From: Gammaproteobacteria bacterium
GTDB taxonomy: Bacteria > Pseudomonadota > Gammaproteobacteria > Eutrophobiales > Eutrophobiaceae
Assembly (NCBI GenBank): GCA_965116495.1
Contig: OZ220696.1
Span: forward strand, 3,488,001-3,552,000
Reading direction: 5' to 3'
Length of the DNA stretch: 64,000 bases
The position numbers were made by a program, and so were the translations under genes. The notes beneath the pieces were generated by a model that worked only from the letters and a program-made list of their open reading frames with translations, was not told where the DNA came from and did not search any database. Positions 52,355-64,000 of the stretch are shown here, piece after piece. Numbering within the stretch: the first letter of the stretch is position 1; each line of letters begins with the position of its first letter.

Positions 52355-52428
52355 ACTTTGGTAGCGCCGTAATAAAGTACGCCGACAAAAAACAATACAG
52401 CAATGGTCAGTAAAATGAACTCAATCAT
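52351..52428 (-). CDS. 25-aa single-TM microprotein
   Basis: MIEFILLTIAVLFFVGVLYYGATKV*, with an ATGA overlap to the upstream ORF and a GTGA overlap to the CoA ligase start. Confidence 0.55.
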   Translation of the reverse strand: MIEFILLTIAVLFFVGVLYYGATKV

Positions 52429-52655
52429 ATTTTTCCTATTTCTTTGGTATATTTCTGGATGCGCTTGAAGACTATTAAATTCATGTAGCTTAAAATGAAA
52501 AGGAGAAACATGCCTACCCAAAAAATCTCATTGATATTCCCTGAAAGATACAAATTCACTAATCCGCCTATGATAAGTACAAACAGCCCAACAAGCACAA
52601 AAAATAGTTTGGTTAAGAATGAAATTCTTTCTTTTAGCTCATCAAGTTTTGTCAT
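52425..52655 (-). CDS. Small two-TM hypothetical protein (AT-rich)
   Basis: MTKLDELKERISFLTKLFFVLVGLFVLIIGGLV...FWVGMFLLFILSYM; much lower GC than its neighbours. Confidence 0.65.
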   Translation of the reverse strand: MTKLDELKERISFLTKLFFVLVGLFVLIIGGLVNLYLSGNINEIFWVGMFLLFILSYMNLIVFKRIQKYTKEIGKI

Positions 52656-52753
52656 GGGTAAATCATGCAATATATATTTTTGATATTCAAGTTGTTATAC
52701 GGGAGAATCTCAGGTACTGAAATATTATTTAATTTGGAACGGTAATCATCCTG

Positions 52754-54238: not shown

Positions 54239-54516
54239 TATTTTTGTTGAAGGATATTATGCCGGAGCAGCATCATGGCTGATACCCTGTTTGAGACGGT
54301 CTTCAGGTTGATTCATACTTCTGCTTGTCTCTATGGTTGAACAACGATGCCATCCTGCACGGCTGTAGGCTTACAGCATCTTGCCACATGGCGGGCATCG
54401 GGTAATTGAGGATTAGTAATTGAAGCTATGGTGGTGAAACGTTGTTTCAAGGATTCAATCGCATGCATCGGGCCCTCGTCCTAAGTCTGAAGGAATATTA
54501 CTTTCCATTGTTAGTG

Positions 54517-54551
54517 GAAAAACCGCCTCTAGGGCGGTTTTTCCGCCCCAA
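54517..54551. repeat. Terminator-like hairpin, left boundary of the AT-richer island
   Basis: gaaaaaccgcctctagggcggtttttccgccccaa, closely related to 63721-63756. Confidence 0.7.
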
Positions 54552-54798
54552 GCCAATATTTGCAATAACCTGGCAAGGGGTGAGTTGTACGCAAGTTATC
54601 AAATATTGACGCGAACTTGTCAATATCAAGTATCAATGTTCAGTTATATTTGTTGACGGCGAAGACGACGGTCACTTCGAACCTGAAATACTATTGTCGT
54701 TTTCTACCCATCAATTATACTCACTATATTCTTCAATATCAGAGTTTAAGAACCTGTCTGGTTTTCAGGTACCAATTCATTTTGCTAGCCCAGAGAAC

Positions 54799-57700
54799 AT
54801 GAAAAAACATCGAATCGGCAAAGGTCTTCCTCGTTGTATAGGAAGTGATAAAAATGGCTTCGAGAGACTATGTAATACGCTTGGGCTAATCGATCGGCAG
54901 CATCGTAAAGTTCTACTGAAAAATGACTTTGTAAAAGAGAAAACAAGTACCCTTCGCAAATCCTTATCTCGTACTCGGCCCGGACCGGGTATGCGGGACC
55001 GAGAACTGTTATTCGAGCTTTATAGCGACCCAAACTCCCGTCTTGAACTCTGGTGCGAATCATTCAATGAAATTAAAACTGGTGAAGAAGAAAACCATTT
55101 AGAGACAGTCTTAGTTCCATCACTGGAATATTGCATTCTTACCAATCATATTCAAAATTTCTCTACGGAAAACAGTACCTCCGACATCAGTGAAGTTTTT
55201 GCTGAGTGGCCGGAGATTGTTCAGTGTTTGAAAGATGAGATTCCATGGGCCAATTTAGCAGGATATGTGTGGTCGGAAATCAAGAAGGATCTTGATAACT
55301 GGGACAACCTAACTGACGATGAACGCACACAAACCACACTGGTCACGTTTGCCGTGGCAACTATCGTCGATGATGATCGAATACTCAGCACCGCCATCCA
55401 GAAAGTCCCACAACTGGAAAATGAATTTAGTAGCCTGCTTAACGGCGGTAGTGACACAGAAAGAGTTGATGACCCAATCGAAGAAAAGGATATCGTGTTT
55501 CAGTGGAATGAGTTCTGTGGGACGTTAGGGATGTTAGCAGCAGAGGCGGTCGGCTCTCCCCCTAAGGTGGATGCTCTAGCCCAAATCAAGCTCACTGTAG
55601 GGGAACTAGATAAAATCGAGCAGTCTGTGAGAGCTCACCTTGTTACCATTTCATCAGAACGCCTGATCTCACGTGTAGAGGAACTCATTAATGAACTTAC
55701 TATAGAAGAGGCATTCTCATGGCTTGATGATACGGTCAGTAAGCAATTGAAAACTAGATGGCTAGAAGTAGGACAGTCATTGTCTCCCGATCAGATAAAA
55801 GAAGAGTTCAAGCGGCTGGAGGAAGAAGTTCCGAACGCATCTGAACATGTGCAGAACCTTGCGACTACCTTATCGGAAGTCACACAAAAACTTGATAATC
55901 TCCGCACAGAAGAACCAACTAACTTTAAAATACGTTGCCTCTGGGAGGAGAAACTTAATGAGCAGGAGGAGAAACTCCCCGATTTAAGGCGCGAACAGAG
56001 TAAGGCACGGGTCGAATTACTCAGCAAGCTTTCCCCATTAGGGGAAACCTTCAAGCTTAGCCAAGATGGGATTGAATCCCGTCCAAGCGGAGATACACCA
56101 GTTCCTGTTGAGGAAGATCCTTTCTCTGAGAAGTCAGATATAGATGAAAAGCGCCATGCCGAGCAAACAGAGGAAATCGAAATAGAAGATGTTTCTGTTA
56201 AGGATCTTGATGATGTTGATCCTGTTGACCAACCACAAAATATTGAGGAAACGCATAGCGAACAAAATATTGAAAATGATTCCGAACCGCAGAAACCTTT
56301 AACTATTACATCAACCCAAAGGGTTGATATTGGAAAACCAAAAAGTGGTTCAGTAGCGGATACACGCTTAGATCTTGCACGGACACGAGTGATTGATGCA
56401 TTGCTTGAATCACCGCCTCGCTTTGCCTACGTGGTACAAGTTTGCCGTCTGATTAACCGCTTTAGTCTTGATACTGATCTGCCACCAGTCAAACTTTTTG
56501 AGGCCATGTTGTTATCTGATCGTCTTCAGTTGCCTGATGCAAATGTGGCTTTTGAATTGAAGCAAGTTCTTGAGCAAGTTCTTGAGCAATTCTCTTCACC
56601 AGAAAAAATCACGGATGGTTCAAACCGTGACCTGCATGTAATGTTGGTGCTTGCAGGCACCTTGCGTCCAGCATTACTCGCGCCACAATCCGGTGCGTTA
56701 GTGTTCTTGACTGCGTTAAAGCCGAGTGAACGTTTAGGTACCGTATATCAACTTGCCAATGTGATTATCGAAGGGAGTGAAAAGCTCCAAGGGGTACGGG
56801 TCGATTCCTCCATTTTGAGAGGTGCTGATTCTAAAGCCGTTTGGGAAACTAAACGTGAACAACTCGTGTCGGATGTAGTCGAATGGAAAAAACAGGCACC
56901 GTACAGGACAATTAAGTATGCCCCTGCCACTAAGGTATGGCAGAAGTGGCTGAAGACAGACGGCTACATACATCAGTTGTTATCACCTATTGCCCCTGGC
57001 AGTAATGGTAATAGCACAACAATTAAGGAGATATTAACAAAATTAGGAGATAGAAAGTCGTTCGAGGAATTAGTCAAAAATACTGATCGATCAGAACTCG
57101 GACGTCGGAGGGGTGAGAACATCCACTCGAAAGCATTAAACCAACTCTATGCATTGACAAGGGAAGCCGTAGATCTTGCTCGTCGCCACCTCAGCTTGAA
57201 TAGTTCCATACCTGCTCAGTCAGATTTCCTGACCAACACGCTAGCAGATATACGTGATAGCTTTGAAAACTTGGCACCAATCGCACTCCAAGAGTTAGAC
57301 AGTTTTATGGGTGAAGAAAAATCACTACTCTCCGGGGCTGCGAATTCTGCCATCTACGCGCTCAAGCGGTTTCGTGAGATATTAACGACTGGATATACGG
57401 GGGGTGACCAAGAACCTGATCCCAAGGAACTTATTGGTTCCGGACTTTTCGGTTTTTCATCTATCCATATCGATGACAATGGTATGCCAGAAGGTGACCC
57501 TGAGCAGGCACTCAATGCCCTCTTGTCTACCGACAAGCCAGAAGAATATGAATCGGCGCTCGAACGATATTTGACAGTGGGTGATCTGAAGACAGCAAAG
57601 CGGGTCGCAAACTGGATTGAATACGAAGATCTTAATGATACAGGGGATATCCAAAATCGACTGGACGAAGTATTAGCTTCGGAAACCCAAAAATTGTACT

Positions 57701-60700
57701 TGCTCATAAATGAGACGAGGAAGGAGGTCGAGGTTGGACTTGGTCGTGGCACCATATCTGATGCGGAAAGAGATACATTTGATGCAGACTTAGTTCAATT
57801 AGAACTTCTTCTTGAAGAAGCGAGGGTACTACGTTTTGATCTTGAGAGGGATAAGCTGGAACATATAGTTGAAACTATCAAGAACAGCCGCGATTCAAAA
57901 ACGGAGAAGTTGAAAGTGTCGCTTGATGATCTCTCTCTTTCCTCTGAAAGCACGGAACATAAGCAGATTACACAATCAATTGAACAGGGTGATCTTGTAA
58001 CTGCGAATGAACTCATAGATCGGGTTCGCGACAACACATCCTATTCGGTCGAAACTGAACCGGGTAATCAAAGGCAAGTATTCCGGGAGTTTTATCCCAT
58101 CCGGTCAGATGAGATAGATAAAGAACTTGAGGTATTACGAAACAGCAAAGAAATTGTAGAGAAAATCAGAAAAAGTAGCGAGTTTGGAGGAATGGCACTC
58201 GGCGAAATCCCTGGTGCGCAGCGGGATTCTGCAAAGCAGATGCTTGAAGCATGGTATAGCCTGAAACGCGCAAATCGACTCGATGAAAAAGATAAGGCAA
58301 GTATAACTACGCTATTTTCGGGACTAGGGTTCATCGTACAAAAGGTGGCTATAAATCGATCAGGGCGGAATTTTGCGGAAGCTTTGATTAAAACAGATCC
58401 TTTACAAGCGCGAGAACGGTGCCCTATTCCTGCATTTGGATCATTTACTAAGGGTCAATATCGTCTCGTGTTTCTCTGGGGGCGACCCACCGAGGAGGAT
58501 ATTATCCAGCACGCTGATGAGCGTAGCGTAACGCAAGCCACAATTGTTCTCTACCTGGGACGACTCAGTAATGCTAGACGAGAGGGATTATCACGTATTT
58601 CTCGCGAGCGATCTCGGACCTTACTTATCCTAGATGAACTTTTGCTGGTTTTTCTCTGTGGTGAACGCGACTCGCGGACATTCAATCTCTTCTCATGTGC
58701 TATACCGTTCACTTATGTACAGCCATACGTGACGATCGCCGGTTCAGTCCCTCCAGAAATGTTTTATGGGCGTGAGCAAGAAATGCAAGAGATTGTAAAT
58801 CCACATGGTTCCGTCTTCATTTTTGGAGGCCGACAACTTGGGAAGACGGCGCTCCTTCGAGCAGTTGAGAGGATGTCGCATCGGCCGAAAGACGGTAGTT
58901 TTGCCGTTTTTATAGACCTCAAGGGTGCAGGGGTTGGTTATGATAGAGACGCGGCAGAAATATGGCTTGTAATCTGGCGCAGACTACGGGAACTTTCAGC
59001 CATACCTGATGAAATCAAGGAACCTAATAATAAGGGGAGAGGACGTATAGACGATTTCATGGATCGCTTATGTACCCGTTTCAGTGAGTCATCAGGACGT
59101 TCACTTTTTATTTTATTGGATGAGGCTGATAAGTTCCTGGAAGTGGATGCACGAGATTCAGGTATTTCAACGAAGGGATTTCGCGAGTCATCCAGGCTCA
59201 AAGCACTAATGGACAGAACCGGACGTTCTATCAAAGTTGTATTTGCAGGACTTCACAATGTGTTACGCACTGTTAAAGGGGCAAATCATCCGTTAGGTCA
59301 CTTCGGGGAGCCTATCGAGGTTGGTCCACTGCTTTCAGGTACTGGCTGGCAAAACGCAGAGGAGTTAATTCGCCAACCGCTCCTTGTGTCTGGATATCGA
59401 TTCAAGGACGATAGCCTCGTAACTCGCATTCTGGCCCAGACGAATTATTACCCAAGTCTCATCCAACTGTATGGTTCAGCGCTAATAAAGGAGATGCGGT
59501 CCCGGCAAATAACCGGCGCTCCACTCTACATCATAGATGACAAAATACTTGCTCAAACTTATCAGAATACAAATCTTCGAGAGATGATTCGTTCGAGGTT
59601 TCATCTAACCTTACAACTCGACCCGCGCTATGAGGTTATTGCGTATTCTATCGCAAATGATTGTATTGAACAGGAAGCTTTACTGGGCAAAGGAATCGAT
59701 CATCGACGGATTGATGAGGCTGTAAGAGACTGGTGGCCGGAAGGCTTTAAGGATATTGAGCCTCATACTGACGGGTTAAGAGCGCTTCTGGAGGAGATGG
59801 CAGGGCTCGGTGTGCTAAGGGTCGTCGATGAACAAGATGGTCGATATACTCTGCGTAATCCAAATGTCTTGCTGTTGATGGGGACAAAAAATGAAATCGC
59901 CGAAAACCTTCTCAGGAATCGTGAACCACCGCAGGAGTTCGAGCGCGAATATTTCAGGGCACGTGATCCACAGGAACCTGACGGTCCTTCTCGGAGTCCT
60001 CTTACGTTTCAACAGGAAGATATTTTACGTGCTGAGCGGAATGGTATTTCTCTTATCTGTGGTCTTCCGGCTTCCGGATTTGACTATGTTATACCGTTCC
60101 TCAGATCCCGTGGAGATAATGATTCCGTTATTGAGTTCAATGACTTAATTGACCAACGTGAATTTGAAAAAGAGGTGAGACGTCTGCATTCCAAACGACC
60201 TGACGGTACAACTATCTGTGTGATTTCCCATGAGGTGCCGTGGAGTGAAAGATGGGTTCAAGCTGCTTTGGATCAGGTTGACAGACTAAGCGCAAAGGGC
60301 CGGTATCTCCAGATAGTATTTATGACTGATCCGCAACACCTGTGGACACTTCAATCCGAACTCAAAAAGCTCAACCAGGCGGGGCTTCGGTGGAACTCAT
60401 TACGACCGTGGCGAGAAGGCTTCCTTCGCCAATGGATGGATGATGTCGGATTTAGCAATGACCCAACCATTCGCGAACAGATCATCGAGAAAACAGGTGG
60501 ATGGAAGACACTCCTCGAACGACTTTATTTTTTGAGCCAGGAAACTGGTAATTTGGAAAACAGCCTCAAAACACTGGAAAATGAATTCACGAATGGGGAT
60601 GATTCTATACTTCGCAAAAACTTTGCTCTTGATGTTCCCGGAGCAAATAAGGCGCTGCAGTGTCTTAATGATGTCGGTGGTAAAAATGAAACTACGACAG

Positions 60701-60873
60701 AGGAAATCATGAATTTCCTTGATAACTTCCCTGATGACTATGGCATAGATGGTGTCACACTAAAACGAACCCTTGAGTGGGCTGAGTTGCTTCATCTAGT
60801 ACGTAGGGCAGGCCATAACGCTTGGCGGTTGGACTCAATCGCGGCACATGCGATCTCTTCGATCGGACGTTGA
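54799..60873 (+). CDS. Giant (~2020 aa) multidomain STAND-type P-loop NTPase
   Basis: The FYGREQE pre-motif, Walker A GGRQLGKT (58825-58848), Walker B FILLDEAD (~59107-59130) and TNYYPSLIQL are present. The N-terminal part is helical/coiled-coil with an acidic linker. A C-terminal degenerate repeat carries CGLPASGFD, LRPW and KTGGW. Start is ATG 54799 or TTG 54694. Confidence 0.85.
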   Translation: MKKHRIGKGLPRCIGSDKNGFERLCNTLGLIDRQHRKVLLKNDFVKEKTSTLRKSLSRTRPGPGMRDRELLFELYSDPNSRLELWCESFNEIKTGEEENHLETVLVPSLEYCILTNHIQNFSTENSTSDISEVFAEWPEIVQCLKDEIPWANLAGYVWSEIKKDLDNWDNLTDDERTQTTLVTFAVATIVDDDRILSTAIQKVPQLENEFSSLLNGGSDTERVDDPIEEKDIVFQWNEFCGTLGMLAAEAVGSPPKVDALAQIKLTVGELDKIEQSVRAHLVTISSERLISRVEELINELTIEEAFSWLDDTVSKQLKTRWLEVGQSLSPDQIKEEFKRLEEEVPNASEHVQNLATTLSEVTQKLDNLRTEEPTNFKIRCLWEEKLNEQEEKLPDLRREQSKARVELLSKLSPLGETFKLSQDGIESRPSGDTPVPVEEDPFSEKSDIDEKRHAEQTEEIEIEDVSVKDLDDVDPVDQPQNIEETHSEQNIENDSEPQKPLTITSTQRVDIGKPKSGSVADTRLDLARTRVIDALLESPPRFAYVVQVCRLINRFSLDTDLPPVKLFEAMLLSDRLQLPDANVAFELKQVLEQVLEQFSSPEKITDGSNRDLHVMLVLAGTLRPALLAPQSGALVFLTALKPSERLGTVYQLANVIIEGSEKLQGVRVDSSILRGADSKAVWETKREQLVSDVVEWKKQAPYRTIKYAPATKVWQKWLKTDGYIHQLLSPIAPGSNGNSTTIKEILTKLGDRKSFEELVKNTDRSELGRRRGENIHSKALNQLYALTREAVDLARRHLSLNSSIPAQSDFLTNTLADIRDSFENLAPIALQELDSFMGEEKSLLSGAANSAIYALKRFREILTTGYTGGDQEPDPKELIGSGLFGFSSIHIDDNGMPEGDPEQALNALLSTDKPEEYESALERYLTVGDLKTAKRVANWIEYEDLNDTGDIQNRLDEVLASETQKLYLLINETRKEVEVGLGRGTISDAERDTFDADLVQLELLLEEARVLRFDLERDKLEHIVETIKNSRDSKTEKLKVSLDDLSLSSESTEHKQITQSIEQGDLVTANELIDRVRDNTSYSVETEPGNQRQVFREFYPIRSDEIDKELEVLRNSKEIVEKIRKSSEFGGMALGEIPGAQRDSAKQMLEAWYSLKRANRLDEKDKASITTLFSGLGFIVQKVAINRSGRNFAEALIKTDPLQARERCPIPAFGSFTKGQYRLVFLWGRPTEEDIIQHADERSVTQATIVLYLGRLSNARREGLSRISRERSRTLLILDELLLVFLCGERDSRTFNLFSCAIPFTYVQPYVTIAGSVPPEMFYGREQEMQEIVNPHGSVFIFGGRQLGKTALLRAVERMSHRPKDGSFAVFIDLKGAGVGYDRDAAEIWLVIWRRLRELSAIPDEIKEPNNKGRGRIDDFMDRLCTRFSESSGRSLFILLDEADKFLEVDARDSGISTKGFRESSRLKALMDRTGRSIKVVFAGLHNVLRTVKGANHPLGHFGEPIEVGPLLSGTGWQNAEELIRQPLLVSGYRFKDDSLVTRILAQTNYYPSLIQLYGSALIKEMRSRQITGAPLYIIDDKILAQTYQNTNLREMIRSRFHLTLQLDPRYEVIAYSIANDCIEQEALLGKGIDHRRIDEAVRDWWPEGFKDIEPHTDGLRALLEEMAGLGVLRVVDEQDGRYTLRNPNVLLLMGTKNEIAENLLRNREPPQEFEREYFRARDPQEPDGPSRSPLTFQQEDILRAERNGISLICGLPASGFDYVIPFLRSRGDNDSVIEFNDLIDQREFEKEVRRLHSKRPDGTTICVISHEVPWSERWVQAALDQVDRLSAKGRYLQIVFMTDPQHLWTLQSELKKLNQAGLRWNSLRPWREGFLRQWMDDVGFSNDPTIREQIIEKTGGWKTLLERLYFLSQETGNLENSLKTLENEFTNGDDSILRKNFALDVPGANKALQCLNDVGGKNETTTEEIMNFLDNFPDDYGIDGVTLKRTLEWAELLHLVRRAGHNAWRLDSIAAHAISSIGR

Positions 60874-60876
60874 TGT

Positions 60877-61977
60877 GTGGATATCTGGAGTCTCCCAGGC
60901 CCGTCCTCGTTCGTTGATAATATCGAGAATGCGGTTCGGGATGGATCAAATGTAATTGTCAGGTTTCCAATAGATATCCCTGGTGGATTGAAGCGCGAAC
61001 TAAGAGAGCGGTTACACTCGCTATTTATCTGGAATTACATTGATGCATCGGATTCCAGCTTGAATCCACTTGCATTTCTGCACCAGCAAATTTCTCCAGA
61101 TGTCAGTGCGTTTAAGATAAGTAGCATTGCAGAGTTAGCAGATAATACTTCATTTCAGGGAAGGCTCATTTGGGTAGAGAACATCGATAATGAAATGTGG
61201 CCTGAATGGTCAACGTTTCTAAGAGCTTACTCGGATGCATGTCGGAATGTGGACCTTATGAACCGTACAGTATTCATTGTTCTATTATCCAAAGGAGCTA
61301 TTGCGGGCAAGATAACAAAAGAAGTAGCTCTCGTATCCTATGACTTCAGAGGAGTCGTGGATATGTTGGATCTATTTGTGTTAGCCTTACGGGAAGCTCC
61401 GGTAAGTAATAAACCCCGCGAATATCGTGCACTATTGGCACATATGGTTGCTCAGGTTGCACAGTGGGACATCTCTCTAGCTGGTCAGCTTTTAGCATTG
61501 CCACTCGAAGAAGTGCTCAGTCCCGATAATATCCTCCGGCAATATGCTTTAGATCGCGGTTGGACATCCGAAACACTTAATTGTTGGGAGAATGGAACGC
61601 AGGATGGCATGCCAGAAAAACCTGTCGTGCATTCTGCTTTATTGGAAGTGTGCGGAGAATCGCGAACAGTGCGCCAAAGAATTTGGGCAGCTCAGGCGGC
61701 GGTGCTGCTGCCTCTCATAGAAGAGCAGCGCATCAGCCTTATATCCCAAAATAGTCGGTATCTGAATCTACCTATTAAAACTGAAGATGGGCGGCAAATC
61801 GACGATCCACTCGATTTAGATGTTGGTCAATTAGCGTGGCATCTGGACCGGAGAGACAAACCTAAAGTGTTGAGGAAAAAAATCCGGAGTCTTCGCTTGG
61901 TCCGTAACAAACTGGCACACATGGAACCACTTAAACCAAACGAAGTTCTGAGAGTGATGTTATTCGCCAACTCGTGA
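60877..61977 (+). CDS. Hypothetical protein: degenerate NTPase-like N-terminal part and putative C-terminal HEPN (RxxxxH) domain
   Basis: Starts 3 nt after the giant NTPase. GRLIWVENID is a Walker-B-like strand. The C-terminus LDVGQL...LRLVRNKLAH (61903-61920) fits the HEPN RNase motif. Confidence 0.7.
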   Translation: MDIWSLPGPSSFVDNIENAVRDGSNVIVRFPIDIPGGLKRELRERLHSLFIWNYIDASDSSLNPLAFLHQQISPDVSAFKISSIAELADNTSFQGRLIWVENIDNEMWPEWSTFLRAYSDACRNVDLMNRTVFIVLLSKGAIAGKITKEVALVSYDFRGVVDMLDLFVLALREAPVSNKPREYRALLAHMVAQVAQWDISLAGQLLALPLEEVLSPDNILRQYALDRGWTSETLNCWENGTQDGMPEKPVVHSALLEVCGESRTVRQRIWAAQAAVLLPLIEEQRISLISQNSRYLNLPIKTEDGRQIDDPLDLDVGQLAWHLDRRDKPKVLRKKIRSLRLVRNKLAHMEPLKPNEVLRVMLFANS

Positions 61978-61995
61978 ATCTTCTCTTTTCCCTCA

Positions 61996-62886
61996 ATGCC
62001 TGTCCTATACCCAATTGTTAAAGTAAGTCCGGAATGGCTTCGTGACCCCGAGGATATGGGAAGCAAGAAAAAGTTCTGGTATCTGGTTCCTAGGAGACAG
62101 AGAAGATATTGGCTTTTCAAATATCCACAGGCAGGTACTGGGCAACACTGGGCAGAGAAGATTGCCGCCGAGGTTGCGAGGTTACTGAATATTCAGTGTG
62201 CGAAAGTGGAATTGGCGGTTTTTGGAAGTGAGCAAGGATCGGTGACGGAAGCATTTACACATGGTAAGCGGGAATTAATTCATGGCAATCAGATTTTGGT
62301 AAGGGCTGTTTACGGCTACGATCCCGAGAGAAAATTCCATCAGTCAAGTCATAGTCTGGCGAATATCTGGCAGGCAATAGACAGAGTTTTTACAGAGAAC
62401 ACAGGTGCAAATCGGGCGAAACTCCGTCTTGCAGAGTACTTGGTTCTAGATGCATTGATTGGCAACACGGATCGCCATCACGAGAATTGGGGGATACTTC
62501 GAAAGCGCGTAGGTGACCGTTGGAAAGGGTCGGTGGCTCCATCATTCGATCATGCTTCCTCTTTGGGCCGGGAACTTCGGGATGTGAGACGTGAAAGGCT
62601 GTTAGCTGAGAATCGTGTAGGCGAATATGTCGAAAAGGGACGCGGCGCGATTTACTGGTCGGAAGATGACCTGCACGGTCCAAGCCCGCTGGAATTGGTA
62701 CGGCGGGCAGTCATTTCGTATCCAGACCTATTCCTTCCGGTTGGAAAGAAGCTGGAAAAGCTGGACGGGAAAGCTATGGAAGATATCGTGAACCACATAC
62801 CTGATGGTTGGATATCATCTTTCGCCAGAAAGTTTGCTGTTGCGCTACTGTGTTATAATTTTAAACAATTACAGGAACTATTCTGA
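61996..62886 (+). CDS. HipA-family Ser/Thr kinase lacking the HipA N-terminal subdomain
   Basis: MGSKKKFW loop, WLFK, HWAEKIA, DALIGNTDRHHENWG catalytic loop and APSFDHASSLG. Confidence 0.88.
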   Translation: MPVLYPIVKVSPEWLRDPEDMGSKKKFWYLVPRRQRRYWLFKYPQAGTGQHWAEKIAAEVARLLNIQCAKVELAVFGSEQGSVTEAFTHGKRELIHGNQILVRAVYGYDPERKFHQSSHSLANIWQAIDRVFTENTGANRAKLRLAEYLVLDALIGNTDRHHENWGILRKRVGDRWKGSVAPSFDHASSLGRELRDVRRERLLAENRVGEYVEKGRGAIYWSEDDLHGPSPLELVRRAVISYPDLFLPVGKKLEKLDGKAMEDIVNHIPDGWISSFARKFAVALLCYNFKQLQELF

Positions 62887-63632
62887 TGAGTGAACGAACC
62901 TTATTTCTGGCCTGGCAGGACAGCGATTCCAGCAGGGCGTGGTTCCCAGTGGGACAGCTCGATGCGGACGTTGATCGTCCTTTGTATCGTTTCCGTTATA
63001 TCGGAGGAGCGAAGCGCGCGCAGGAAAACTCAGGGTTCCCTCTACTCGTTGAGTTTCCCTCACTAGGGGGGGATTATAAATCTCCAGAGTTGTTCCCGCT
63101 GTTCCAGAACCGGGTAATGAATAAGAAAAGGCCGGACTTTGCCGACTATCTGCGTAGTCTTGACTTTACGGAGGAAGCTGATCCTATTGAGATTCTATCG
63201 GTAAACGGAGGTCAACGCATAACGGACGCCTATGAGGTGTTTCCGAAAATCGAGAAGGACGATAGTGGGAACTTCTCTTGTCGGTTCTTTCTGCATGGTT
63301 GGCGGCACGTCAAACAAGCTGCCCAGGAGCGAATTAACGGTCTGGAATCTGGAGAACGGCTTTTCCTAACACGGGGACAGACCGGTCCTGAGACCGGGTT
63401 GGCAGTAGAAATCTGCACTGGTGATGGTTTTATGATTGGTTGGGCGCCACGCTATCTGGTTGCCGATTTTGTTGCGTCTAAGTCTGAAACTCCTGAATAT
63501 TCTGCCCATGTGGTGCGGGTTAATCCCCAGCCTGCCCTGTCAAAACAACGGGTTCTGATTGAGATGCGTGGCCGCTGGGAAACCCACGAACCCATGAGAG
63601 GTGAGGATTTTGTGCCTTTGGTTGACGGCTGA
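62886..63632 (+). CDS. HipS-like N-terminal domain + HIRAN domain protein
   Basis: WFPVGQLD..YRFRY..ELFPLFQNRV (HipA-N/HipS-like) and FFLHGWRH...LAVEI...MIGWAPRYL (HIRAN). TGATG overlap with the kinase gene. Confidence 0.8.
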   Translation: MSERTLFLAWQDSDSSRAWFPVGQLDADVDRPLYRFRYIGGAKRAQENSGFPLLVEFPSLGGDYKSPELFPLFQNRVMNKKRPDFADYLRSLDFTEEADPIEILSVNGGQRITDAYEVFPKIEKDDSGNFSCRFFLHGWRHVKQAAQERINGLESGERLFLTRGQTGPETGLAVEICTGDGFMIGWAPRYLVADFVASKSETPEYSAHVVRVNPQPALSKQRVLIEMRGRWETHEPMRGEDFVPLVDG

Positions 63633-63720
63633 GTGTCTGTCAGAGTCGGTCTTAAGATTGTCTAAGGCTTCGTCTTGCCTGTGTGATTGACTATCGTCAA
63701 TGACCCTGCTCCCGAGTAAC

Positions 63721-63756
63721 GAAAAAACCGCTATAGAGGCGGTTTTTTCGCCCCAA
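63721..63756. terminator. Bidirectional terminator-like hairpin, right boundary of the island
   Basis: gaaaaaaccgctatagaggcggttttttcgccccaa, between the convergent HIRAN and DUF3782-like genes. Confidence 0.7.
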
Positions 63757-63762
63757 TCCCGC

Positions 63763-64000
63763 TTACCCGAATACCCGGGGCTGAAAATCTGCCTGGTTGA
63801 CGATACTGGCACTGCTCCCAGTTGCCCGGATAACAAACAGCCCCTGTCGCTCCGCATGGACCTCGGCGGATTGCTCCACCCGCAAATACGCCAGCGCGCC
63901 GTACACCTGCTTGCCCCGGAAAACCGGCACGTGCCCCGTGAACCTTGCCAGCTTCTCCAGAAAGTGTGTCACATCCTGGGCGTGCAACGTAGTCTTCACT
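63763..64000 (-). CDS. C-terminal part of a DUF3782-like PD-(D/E)XK-fold hypothetical protein (5' end beyond the window)
   Basis: VKTTL...DVTHFLEKL...VYGALAYL...AERQGLFVIRATGSSASIVN...F.P..F C-terminus; GC returns to host level. Confidence 0.65.
   Translation of the reverse strand, partial: VKTTLHAQDVTHFLEKLARFTGHVPVFRGKQVYGALAYLRVEQSAEVHAERQGLFVIRATGSSASIVNQADFQPRVFG

Follow-up and report, generated by a model that had tools for sequence, protein, structure and literature searches.

We analyzed a four-gene locus in a 64,000-nt stretch of the genome of a Gammaproteobacteria bacterium (contig OZ220696.1, positions 3,488,001–3,552,000)—in the following called the window, whose numbering is used throughout. 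Four co-directional open reading frames (ORFs) lie on the + strand at 54694–60873, 60877–61977, 61996–62886, and 62886–63632 and encode proteins of 2059 aa (from a TTG start), 366 aa, 296 aa, and 248 aa. The spacing is 3 nt between genes 1 and 2 and 18 nt between genes 2 and 3, and genes 3 and 4 overlap by 1 nt. The GC content of the block is 46.2% compared with 54.7% for the genome, and its genes show a GC content at third codon positions (GC3) of 0.41–0.51 compared with 0.73 in the upstream amidase gene. Within the block, GC3 splits by module into 0.41–0.42 for genes 1 and 2 and 0.46–0.51 for genes 3 and 4. Pfam labels the products as AAA_22 (E 1.4e-4), HEPN_Swt1 (a weak match, E 0.034), HipA_C (E 1e-14), and HIRAN (E 3e-4). 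The original prediction for this DNA had proposed a single four-gene defense system of a giant STAND NTPase, a HEPN-like protein, a HipA kinase, and a HipS–HIRAN protein. Its packed, AT-richer gene block and its domain calls are borne out; the single system, however, resolves into two independent modules, of which genes 1 and 2—a widespread and so far unnamed pair—are the main subject here.

Gene 1 encodes the giant NTPase. Its frame is open from the TTG at 54694, and residue numbers follow this 2059-aa frame; the database gene call starts at the ATG at 54799 and gives 2024 aa (54799–60873, + strand). The N-terminal ~1,100 residues (54799–58083, + strand) are the least conserved part of the protein, with a mean column conservation of 0.29–0.55 compared with 0.68–0.72 in the ATPase, and include an acidic low-complexity linker near residues 460–560. 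This part is likely a sensor or scaffold. A small alpha/beta domain (residues ~1198–1322; 58285–58659, + strand), visible in the secondary structure of the predicted model, precedes the ATPase. It gave no Pfam match and no usable match in the Atlas; in the order of its strands, it may resemble a restriction-endonuclease fold that lacks a catalytic motif. The active STAND ATPase follows together with its helical and winged-helix domains (residues 1343–1731; 58720–59886, + strand). It bears a Walker A motif GGRQLGKT (1378–1385), a Walker B motif (D1476–E1477), and a GLHNVxR motif (1519–1525), whose G, K, D, E, and R are conserved in 42/42 sequences, and its model matches the archaeal ATPase 2qen with Z 20.1 and a root-mean-square deviation (rmsd) of 4.1 over 325 aligned residues. 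Gene 1 hence shows all features asked of the STAND superfamily: intact Walker A and Walker B motifs, a sensor-1/arginine motif, a helical domain, and a winged helix. The remainder of the protein (residues 1759–2059; 59968–60870, + strand) forms another STAND-like module that lacks Walker motifs; it aligns to CED-4 (2a5y; Z 15.0, rmsd 4.8, 273 aligned), and in it GxxxxGK[ST] occurs in 0/42 sequences. The structure model covered residues 1130–2059 with a confidence (pLDDT) of 88.0. The STAND assignment of the original prediction thus stands, but the protein ends in this second, inactive module and not in a repeat sensor. Homologues make up 1,791 of the 7,992 candidates scored, and the frame spans at least 1,700 aa in 42 of the 49 cases measured. 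No relatives of gene 1 were among 98 pattern matches in viral contigs, a PDB sequence search with the profiles of both genes gave no significant match, and an Atlas search with a homologue returned only unnamed AAA_22 clusters.

Gene 2 (60877–61977, + strand) combines, according to its model (pLDDT 91.5) and motifs, an inactive STAND domain (residues 1–~220) with a helical HEPN-type domain (residues ~262–364); the original prediction had its HEPN label but missed that most of the protein is an inactive STAND. A fold search over residues 1–269 matched the N-terminal domain to Cdc6/origin recognition complex (ORC) proteins (Z 10.7, rmsd 4.4, 213 residues aligned) and, with Z 10.5, to Avs5. A Walker A motif occurs in 0/135 homologues. 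No winged helix follows the STAND domain in the model, where merely ~40 residues of short elements connect it to the HEPN part. The C-terminal part is all-helical and carries the motif RNKLAH (R343–H348; 61903–61920, + strand) at a helix end. In the alignment of 135 homologues at 27–37% identity, R343 and H348 are kept without exception, and the residue after the arginine is N, D, or H in 132. The HEPN rule asks for Rx4-6H with a polar residue after the R and an upstream Ex3[KR] (Anantharaman et al. 2013, PMC3710099); the former fits the counts just given, and at the place of the acidic motif E282 is kept in 128/135 and R285 in 131/135 homologues, with the spacing Ex2R. HEPN_Swt1 matches weakly in 17/70 and 9/124 gene 2 sequences. 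Gene 2 is predicted to be the RNA-cutting partner of gene 1. An alignment of its profile with the C-terminal half of gene 1 by HHalign reached a probability of 0.15%, so an origin by duplication lacks sequence support. Longer fused forms of gene 2 (694–2000 aa) were not seen among 7,995 candidates, which is weak evidence.

Both genes occur together. Gene 1 lies directly upstream of gene 2 in 49/53 genome and metagenome loci, with a gap of −4 to 33 nt in all 49 measured; of the other four loci, two begin at a contig edge, one (L024) bears a 176-aa remnant, and one (L044) has gene 2 only in part. Gene 1 is matched by 28 plasmid records, and gene 2 stands directly downstream in 7 of the 12 examined. 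Four genomes in a 401-genome sample of the Bradyrhizobium order match gene 2, and the three full-length copies—one of them from the seed genome—have gene 1 upstream. The gene 2 family comprises 2,558 clusters at 50% identity by profile, 1,940 of them at E≤1e-10. In a quick, midpoint-rooted tree, which supports no donor or order of events, the nearest relatives of the pair come from three phyla within one clade (support 99), and the pair is present on both main branches. By this distribution, genes 1 and 2 are one horizontally spread two-gene unit, independent of genes 3 and 4. The low GC content of the block and the single match of gene 2 among 126 genomes of its own family also speak for mobility. 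Neither gene has a match in PADLOC 2.0.0 (2023), NCBIfam, or PHROGs, and the literature searched, which covers few subscription papers, contains no description of the pair. The suggestion of an unnamed defense-type unit of NTPase and HEPN protein is supported for these two genes; PADLOC, which the original prediction had named as a check, matches genes 3 and 4 only.

Gene 3 (61996–62886, + strand) encodes a small, HipI-like HipA-type kinase and gene 4 (62886–63632, + strand) a HipN-like protein made up of a HipS-like part and a HIRAN part. The PADLOC profiles PDC-M03A (E 1.6e-83) and PDC-M03B (E 1.1e-73) match them over their full length, and kinase motifs are seen in the sequence of gene 3. 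Their order is that of hipIN—a small HipA core kinase and then a HipS-like and HIRAN gene, with HipN as the putative antitoxin (Gerdes et al. 2021)—and the comparison of profiles and layout revealed no difference. PDC-M03 is not named in the main text of 10.1101/2024.01.29.577857. By these profiles and this layout, genes 3 and 4 are a described module, and they likely act alone as a hipIN-type kinase and antitoxin. The original prediction itself had regarded a kinase–HIRAN pair that does not co-occur with the NTPase pair as a sign of two modules, and this is what the loci display. Within 10 kb of gene 2, tblastn found the kinase–HIRAN pair at 0/53 loci, two of which (L041 and L048) break off too early for this test; a profile search found it at 0/65 loci. 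The kinase profile was built from six close homologues and misses the annotated hipBA-type HipA of L083; distant kinases may therefore escape it. In L083 and L086, HipA genes are annotated behind a helix-turn-helix gene, at distances of 6 and 12 kb from the NTPase gene or the pair. Within its own family of 126 genomes, gene 4 was matched in 11 and gene 2 in one, the genome itself. Six of nine HIRAN loci examined at length occupy the same site after the amidase gene, and in four same-genus genomes (L068–L071) the kinase and HIRAN genes follow the amidase gene directly, without the NTPase pair. Two further loci of the genus (L067 and L072) contain the HIRAN gene among PIN, NYN-like, and Phd-type cassettes, as read from their sequences. 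In these two and in L074, no kinase was detected upstream of the HIRAN gene; the putative antitoxin can therefore persist alone.

The site is bounded by the amidase gene on one side and a MarR-like gene on the other (54239–64476), and the comparison of L067–L072 identifies it as a genus-level cassette hotspot that gains and loses cassettes. Those read from the sequences of relatives include hipIN, PIN, NYN-like, a Phd/PIN pair, and others; an integrase was not noticed in the ORF lists of the window site and L067–L072. A ~98% identical contig (X11 record 6) joins 54654 to 62292 and hence bears neither genes 1 and 2 nor the start of the kinase gene; as it stems from a very close relative, loss of the pair does happen. 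Another contig, ~88% identical and from another run (X7 record 28), runs from the last part of gene 1 through to gene 4. This common adjacency is explained by shared descent in a close lineage.

The closest described scheme to genes 1 and 2 is the predicted nSTAND2 two-gene system (PF20702), for which Kaur et al. 2021 (PMC8195603) predict a toroidal hetero-multimer of an active STAND and an inactive STAND–HEPN protein. Both are mobile two-gene operons with a STAND in each gene, the active one first, and a HEPN domain—in gene 2 assigned by motif—fused to the inactive second. As described there, the nSTAND2 effector gene encodes nSTAND2, a winged helix-turn-helix (wHTH), TPRs, and HEPN in mostly 486–640 aa, or comes with GT4, whereas gene 2 comprises 366 aa and has no TPR or wHTH part. 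Gene 1 also differs by its second inactive STAND module, which raises the total of the pair to three STANDs. PF20702 matched 0/70 and 0/124 gene 2 and 0/42 gene 1 sequences at E≤0.05 and nothing in the genome itself; a positive control in another genome (a 113-aa fragment) was matched, and the profiles of the pair did not match that fragment. Since PF20702 is unmatched and the effector lacks wHTH and TPRs, the pair is not a member of nSTAND2, though by analogy it likely works like it. With Avs/AVAST and bacterial NLR-related receptors, the pair has the STAND ATPase switch in common, including fold matches to Avs5 and plant NLRs. It bears, however, neither a C-terminal TPR/WD40 sensor nor an N-terminal effector—the effector being encoded by the second gene—and none of the Avs profiles in PADLOC matched. 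Hence, the order of effector, STAND, and repeat sensor is not found. Six homologue accessions are absent from seven supplements of a 2026 STAND survey (PMC13581612), and the ATPase of gene 1 may be one of its 589 clades. In BREX (BrxC–BrxB) and in MoxR–vWA–iSTAND systems, an active AAA+/STAND ATPase likewise works with an inactive STAND beside an effector, and such inactive domains have been proposed as nucleic-acid receptors (PMC12839542; PMC8195603). Unlike there, methyltransferase, PglZ, MoxR, and vWA genes are not conserved alongside the pair. Related literature further includes PMC10853773 and 10.64898/2026.10.19.760177.

The N-terminus of gene 1 is exchangeable: in relatives, pPIWI-RE or sigma-70 is attached to it or takes its place. 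Fusions of a gene 1 of 3,100–3,400 aa behind pPIWI-RE occur in Bradyrhizobium, Azospirillum, Microvirga, and a Gemmataceae genome (L042:661–9972, L041, L043, L082:6543–16727, L085:7062–16832, and L086:7137–16439). The fusion is shown by Pfam in L042; the other cases are annotated RNaseH-domain proteins—as are 7 of the 28 plasmid matches of gene 1—or plain homologues. On three plasmids, the fused gene follows restriction endonuclease (REase) and DinG-type genes next to a divergent WYL gene, which yields a WYL / REase / DinG / PIWI–STAND / HEPN–kinase operon. The REase–DinG–pPIWI-RE order of the three-gene pPIWI-RE system is thus intact in this clade and joined directly to the pair, whereas the copy in the window bears no PIWI part. 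The forms listed by Burroughs et al. 2013 (PMC3702460) are standalone, three-gene, and rare zincin-fused ones, with no STAND fusion among them, and the literature searched by us likewise holds no description of a pPIWI-RE–STAND fusion. Gene 2 of the pPIWI-RE-fusion forms and of Agrobacterium bears a P-loop kinase domain (AAA_33-like) C-terminal to RNxxAH. Such kinase-bearing copies are seen at L079:14607–16196, L090, and L092, the Agrobacterium case being without the PIWI fusion. These forms fall on a single branch (support 100) together with the partnerless Bosea homologue. Cyanobacterial homologues (P0112, P0113, and P0123; L076:7870–14739) carry sigma-70 regions 1.2–4 at the N-terminus, as found by scanning two of them and from precomputed domains for the third. 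On the Brasilonema plasmid, the gene after the giant homologue encodes an HKD–SNF2 helicase and not a HEPN partner. At a Euzebya locus (L084:14664–17351), an unrelated 895-aa protein without a PADLOC match is encoded right after the giant gene, overlapping it by 1 nt; it is possibly an alternative partner.

The neighborhood of the pair points toward defense. All seven plasmid loci with both genes have a PADLOC match among the annotated neighbors chosen for scanning: AbiEi; Hhe/PDC-S37 with Cas2e; WYL with E1–E2/JAB; Druantia DruH3/DruE3; and, three times, parts of pPIWI-RE. At the 53 loci from genomes and metagenomes, the scan passed over clusters that Pfam clearly labels as housekeeping; it covered 41 neighboring ORFs at E≤1e-8 and 149 of the remaining 222 at E≤1e-25. 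Hereby, 28/53 loci show a PADLOC match nearby, 12 of them to a named system; Pbe, Septu, Hachiman, SoFic, and pPIWI-RE are among these systems. The PDC-S01 cluster is carried by 13 of the 53 loci and was scored through one representative. Since there is no background control and kin are not independent, the counts lend support in kind and not as enrichment.

We regard it as somewhat more probable than an even chance that genes 1 and 2 form an infection-triggered suicide switch, located upstream of the unrelated and already described kinase pair. Its likely benefit is that an infected cell is shut down and bacteria are thereby guarded against invading DNA. In the mechanism we propose, the variable N-terminal half of gene 1 would sense a molecule of the invader, and ATP bound at the sole active STAND domain would drive assembly. 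The two inactive STANDs, which lie C-terminally in gene 1 and N-terminally in gene 2, would pack alongside—in the manner of the origin recognition complex, not all of whose subunits are active—and thereby the HEPN domains of gene 2 would be brought together to a dimeric RNase site. Cellular RNA would then be cut, and growth of the infected cell would stop. We infer the defense function, the binding, and the RNase activity from the architecture and folds, the conserved motifs, the tight pairing, the mobility, and the defense neighbors described above and from the nSTAND2 precedent. Several observations weigh against this picture. The HEPN Pfam matches of gene 2 are all below the Pfam cut-off, its acidic motif E282-x2-R285 is one residue short of Ex3[KR], and the fold search covered residues 1–269, whereas the HEPN-type domain spans residues ~262–364. 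Gene 1 lacks the C-terminal repeat sensor of Avs proteins. Gene 2 was not detected beside gene 1 at 5 of the 12 plasmid loci examined (Brasilonema, Bosea, Euzebya, and two Streptomyces); the RNase is therefore not always needed. Finally, at 25/53 loci none of the ORFs scanned gave a PADLOC match, and many loci lie amid housekeeping genes.

A more far-reaching version, which we put forward only tentatively and which is more probably wrong than right, sees genes 1 and 2 as the core of an immune switch that is modular and so far undescribed. One active and two inactive STANDs would form an ORC-like ring that fires the HEPN RNase, and the N-terminal input would be swappable—a PIWI-RE Argonaute-type module in one clade and sigma-70 in cyanobacteria. 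If true, the clade with the PIWI-RE input would possess an NLR-like suicide system programmed by guides, as a backup to DNA restriction. The roles might also be swapped with the same outcome for the cell: the inactive STAND of gene 2 would be the nucleic-acid sensor and gene 1 an amplifier or scaffold that sets the threshold. The receptor role proposed for inactive STANDs in MoxR–vWA and BREX systems and the resemblance of the N-terminal domain of gene 2 to DNA-binding Cdc6/ORC subunits speak for this. It is nevertheless unlikely, as it is gene 1 that has the region of highest variability and the N-terminal modules that can be swapped and as the winged helix is missing after the STAND domain of gene 2 in the model.

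Quite unlikely is a selfish addiction or anti-plasmid module without an anti-phage role, in which gene 1 would restrain the RNase or free it upon loss of the element. The pair is indeed patchy and mobile, occurs on plasmids (the 28 records), often stands alone amid housekeeping genes, and is found in the window at a site that collects toxin–antitoxin cassettes. However, a 6-kb ATPase would be a costly antitoxin, named antiphage systems and WYL regulators are among the neighbors, and the ~98% identical contig documents loss of the pair. One system of all four genes, with the NTPase triggering the RNase, the kinase, or both, is very unlikely: the tight spacing suggests co-transcription at the window locus and the ~88% identical contig keeps the end of gene 1 through gene 4, but the adjacency in a close lineage is explained by descent. 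The absence of the kinase pair from the gene 2 loci by both searches, the uneven counts of HIRAN gene and gene 2 in the family, the kinase pair directly after the amidase gene in L068–L071, and the split in GC3 all argue against it. Least probable is a pair that processes or recycles RNA under stress and is not directed at invaders. The C-terminal AAA_33 P-loop kinase on gene 2 in one clade would fit this role, and a fusion of HEPN and P-loop kinase would parallel the eukaryotic Las1–Grc3 pairing. The patchy distribution, the horizontal spread, the defense neighbors, and the frequent decay—seen in the gene 1 frames shorter than 1,700 aa—are at odds with it.

Under the favored reading of a suicide switch, the pair would be of interest in several respects. 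It is a large family that is unnamed in the libraries searched, and its build is unusual, with no repeat sensor and with one active STAND domain out of three. It offers a direct test of the prediction that inactive STANDs co-assemble with active ones to release an RNase. Also, in cultured Bradyrhizobium, Azospirillum, and Microvirga, the fusion to pPIWI-RE would couple an NLR-like switch to guide recognition of the Argonaute type.

Two hairpins bracket the block—a terminator-like one on the left (54518–54554, no strand assigned) and a related one on the right (63723–63759, 37 nt, no strand assigned)—with 78% identity over 37 nt. The exact arm pattern has three copies in the 4.34 Mb genome, and as two of these flank the block, the pairing is not due to chance. 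The original prediction had placed related hairpins at both ends, and related they are. As ends of a four-gene mobile unit, however, they were rejected: the left hairpin and ~100 nt adjoining it are present at the same site in L067 and L072, which bear no genes 1 and 2, and it is hence a resident of the variable site and not specific to the pair. A loose form of the pattern was not found at the ends of the pair in 53 related loci, apart from two unrelated-looking matches. The flanks of the two hairpins match in direct orientation, but for their loops the inverted, reverse-complement alignment is the better one (92% over 25 nt); by sequence, the loop looks as though it had been flipped.

Further genes surround the block. 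At 54347–54490 are the decayed remains of two paired minus-strand genes (about 165 and 146 aa); this gene pair is intact in L067 and partly intact in L071. Directly after the block, a minus-strand gene (63763–64000 in the window; L054:1763–2476) encodes a 237-aa coiled-coil and PD-(D/E)XK-like protein with a weak Hjc match, which is absent at this place in the relatives aligned. Farther upstream, an 81-aa AT-rich ORF for a two-helix membrane protein (52425–52670, minus strand) lies between acyl-CoA ligase-like and amidase genes and is apparently another insertion.

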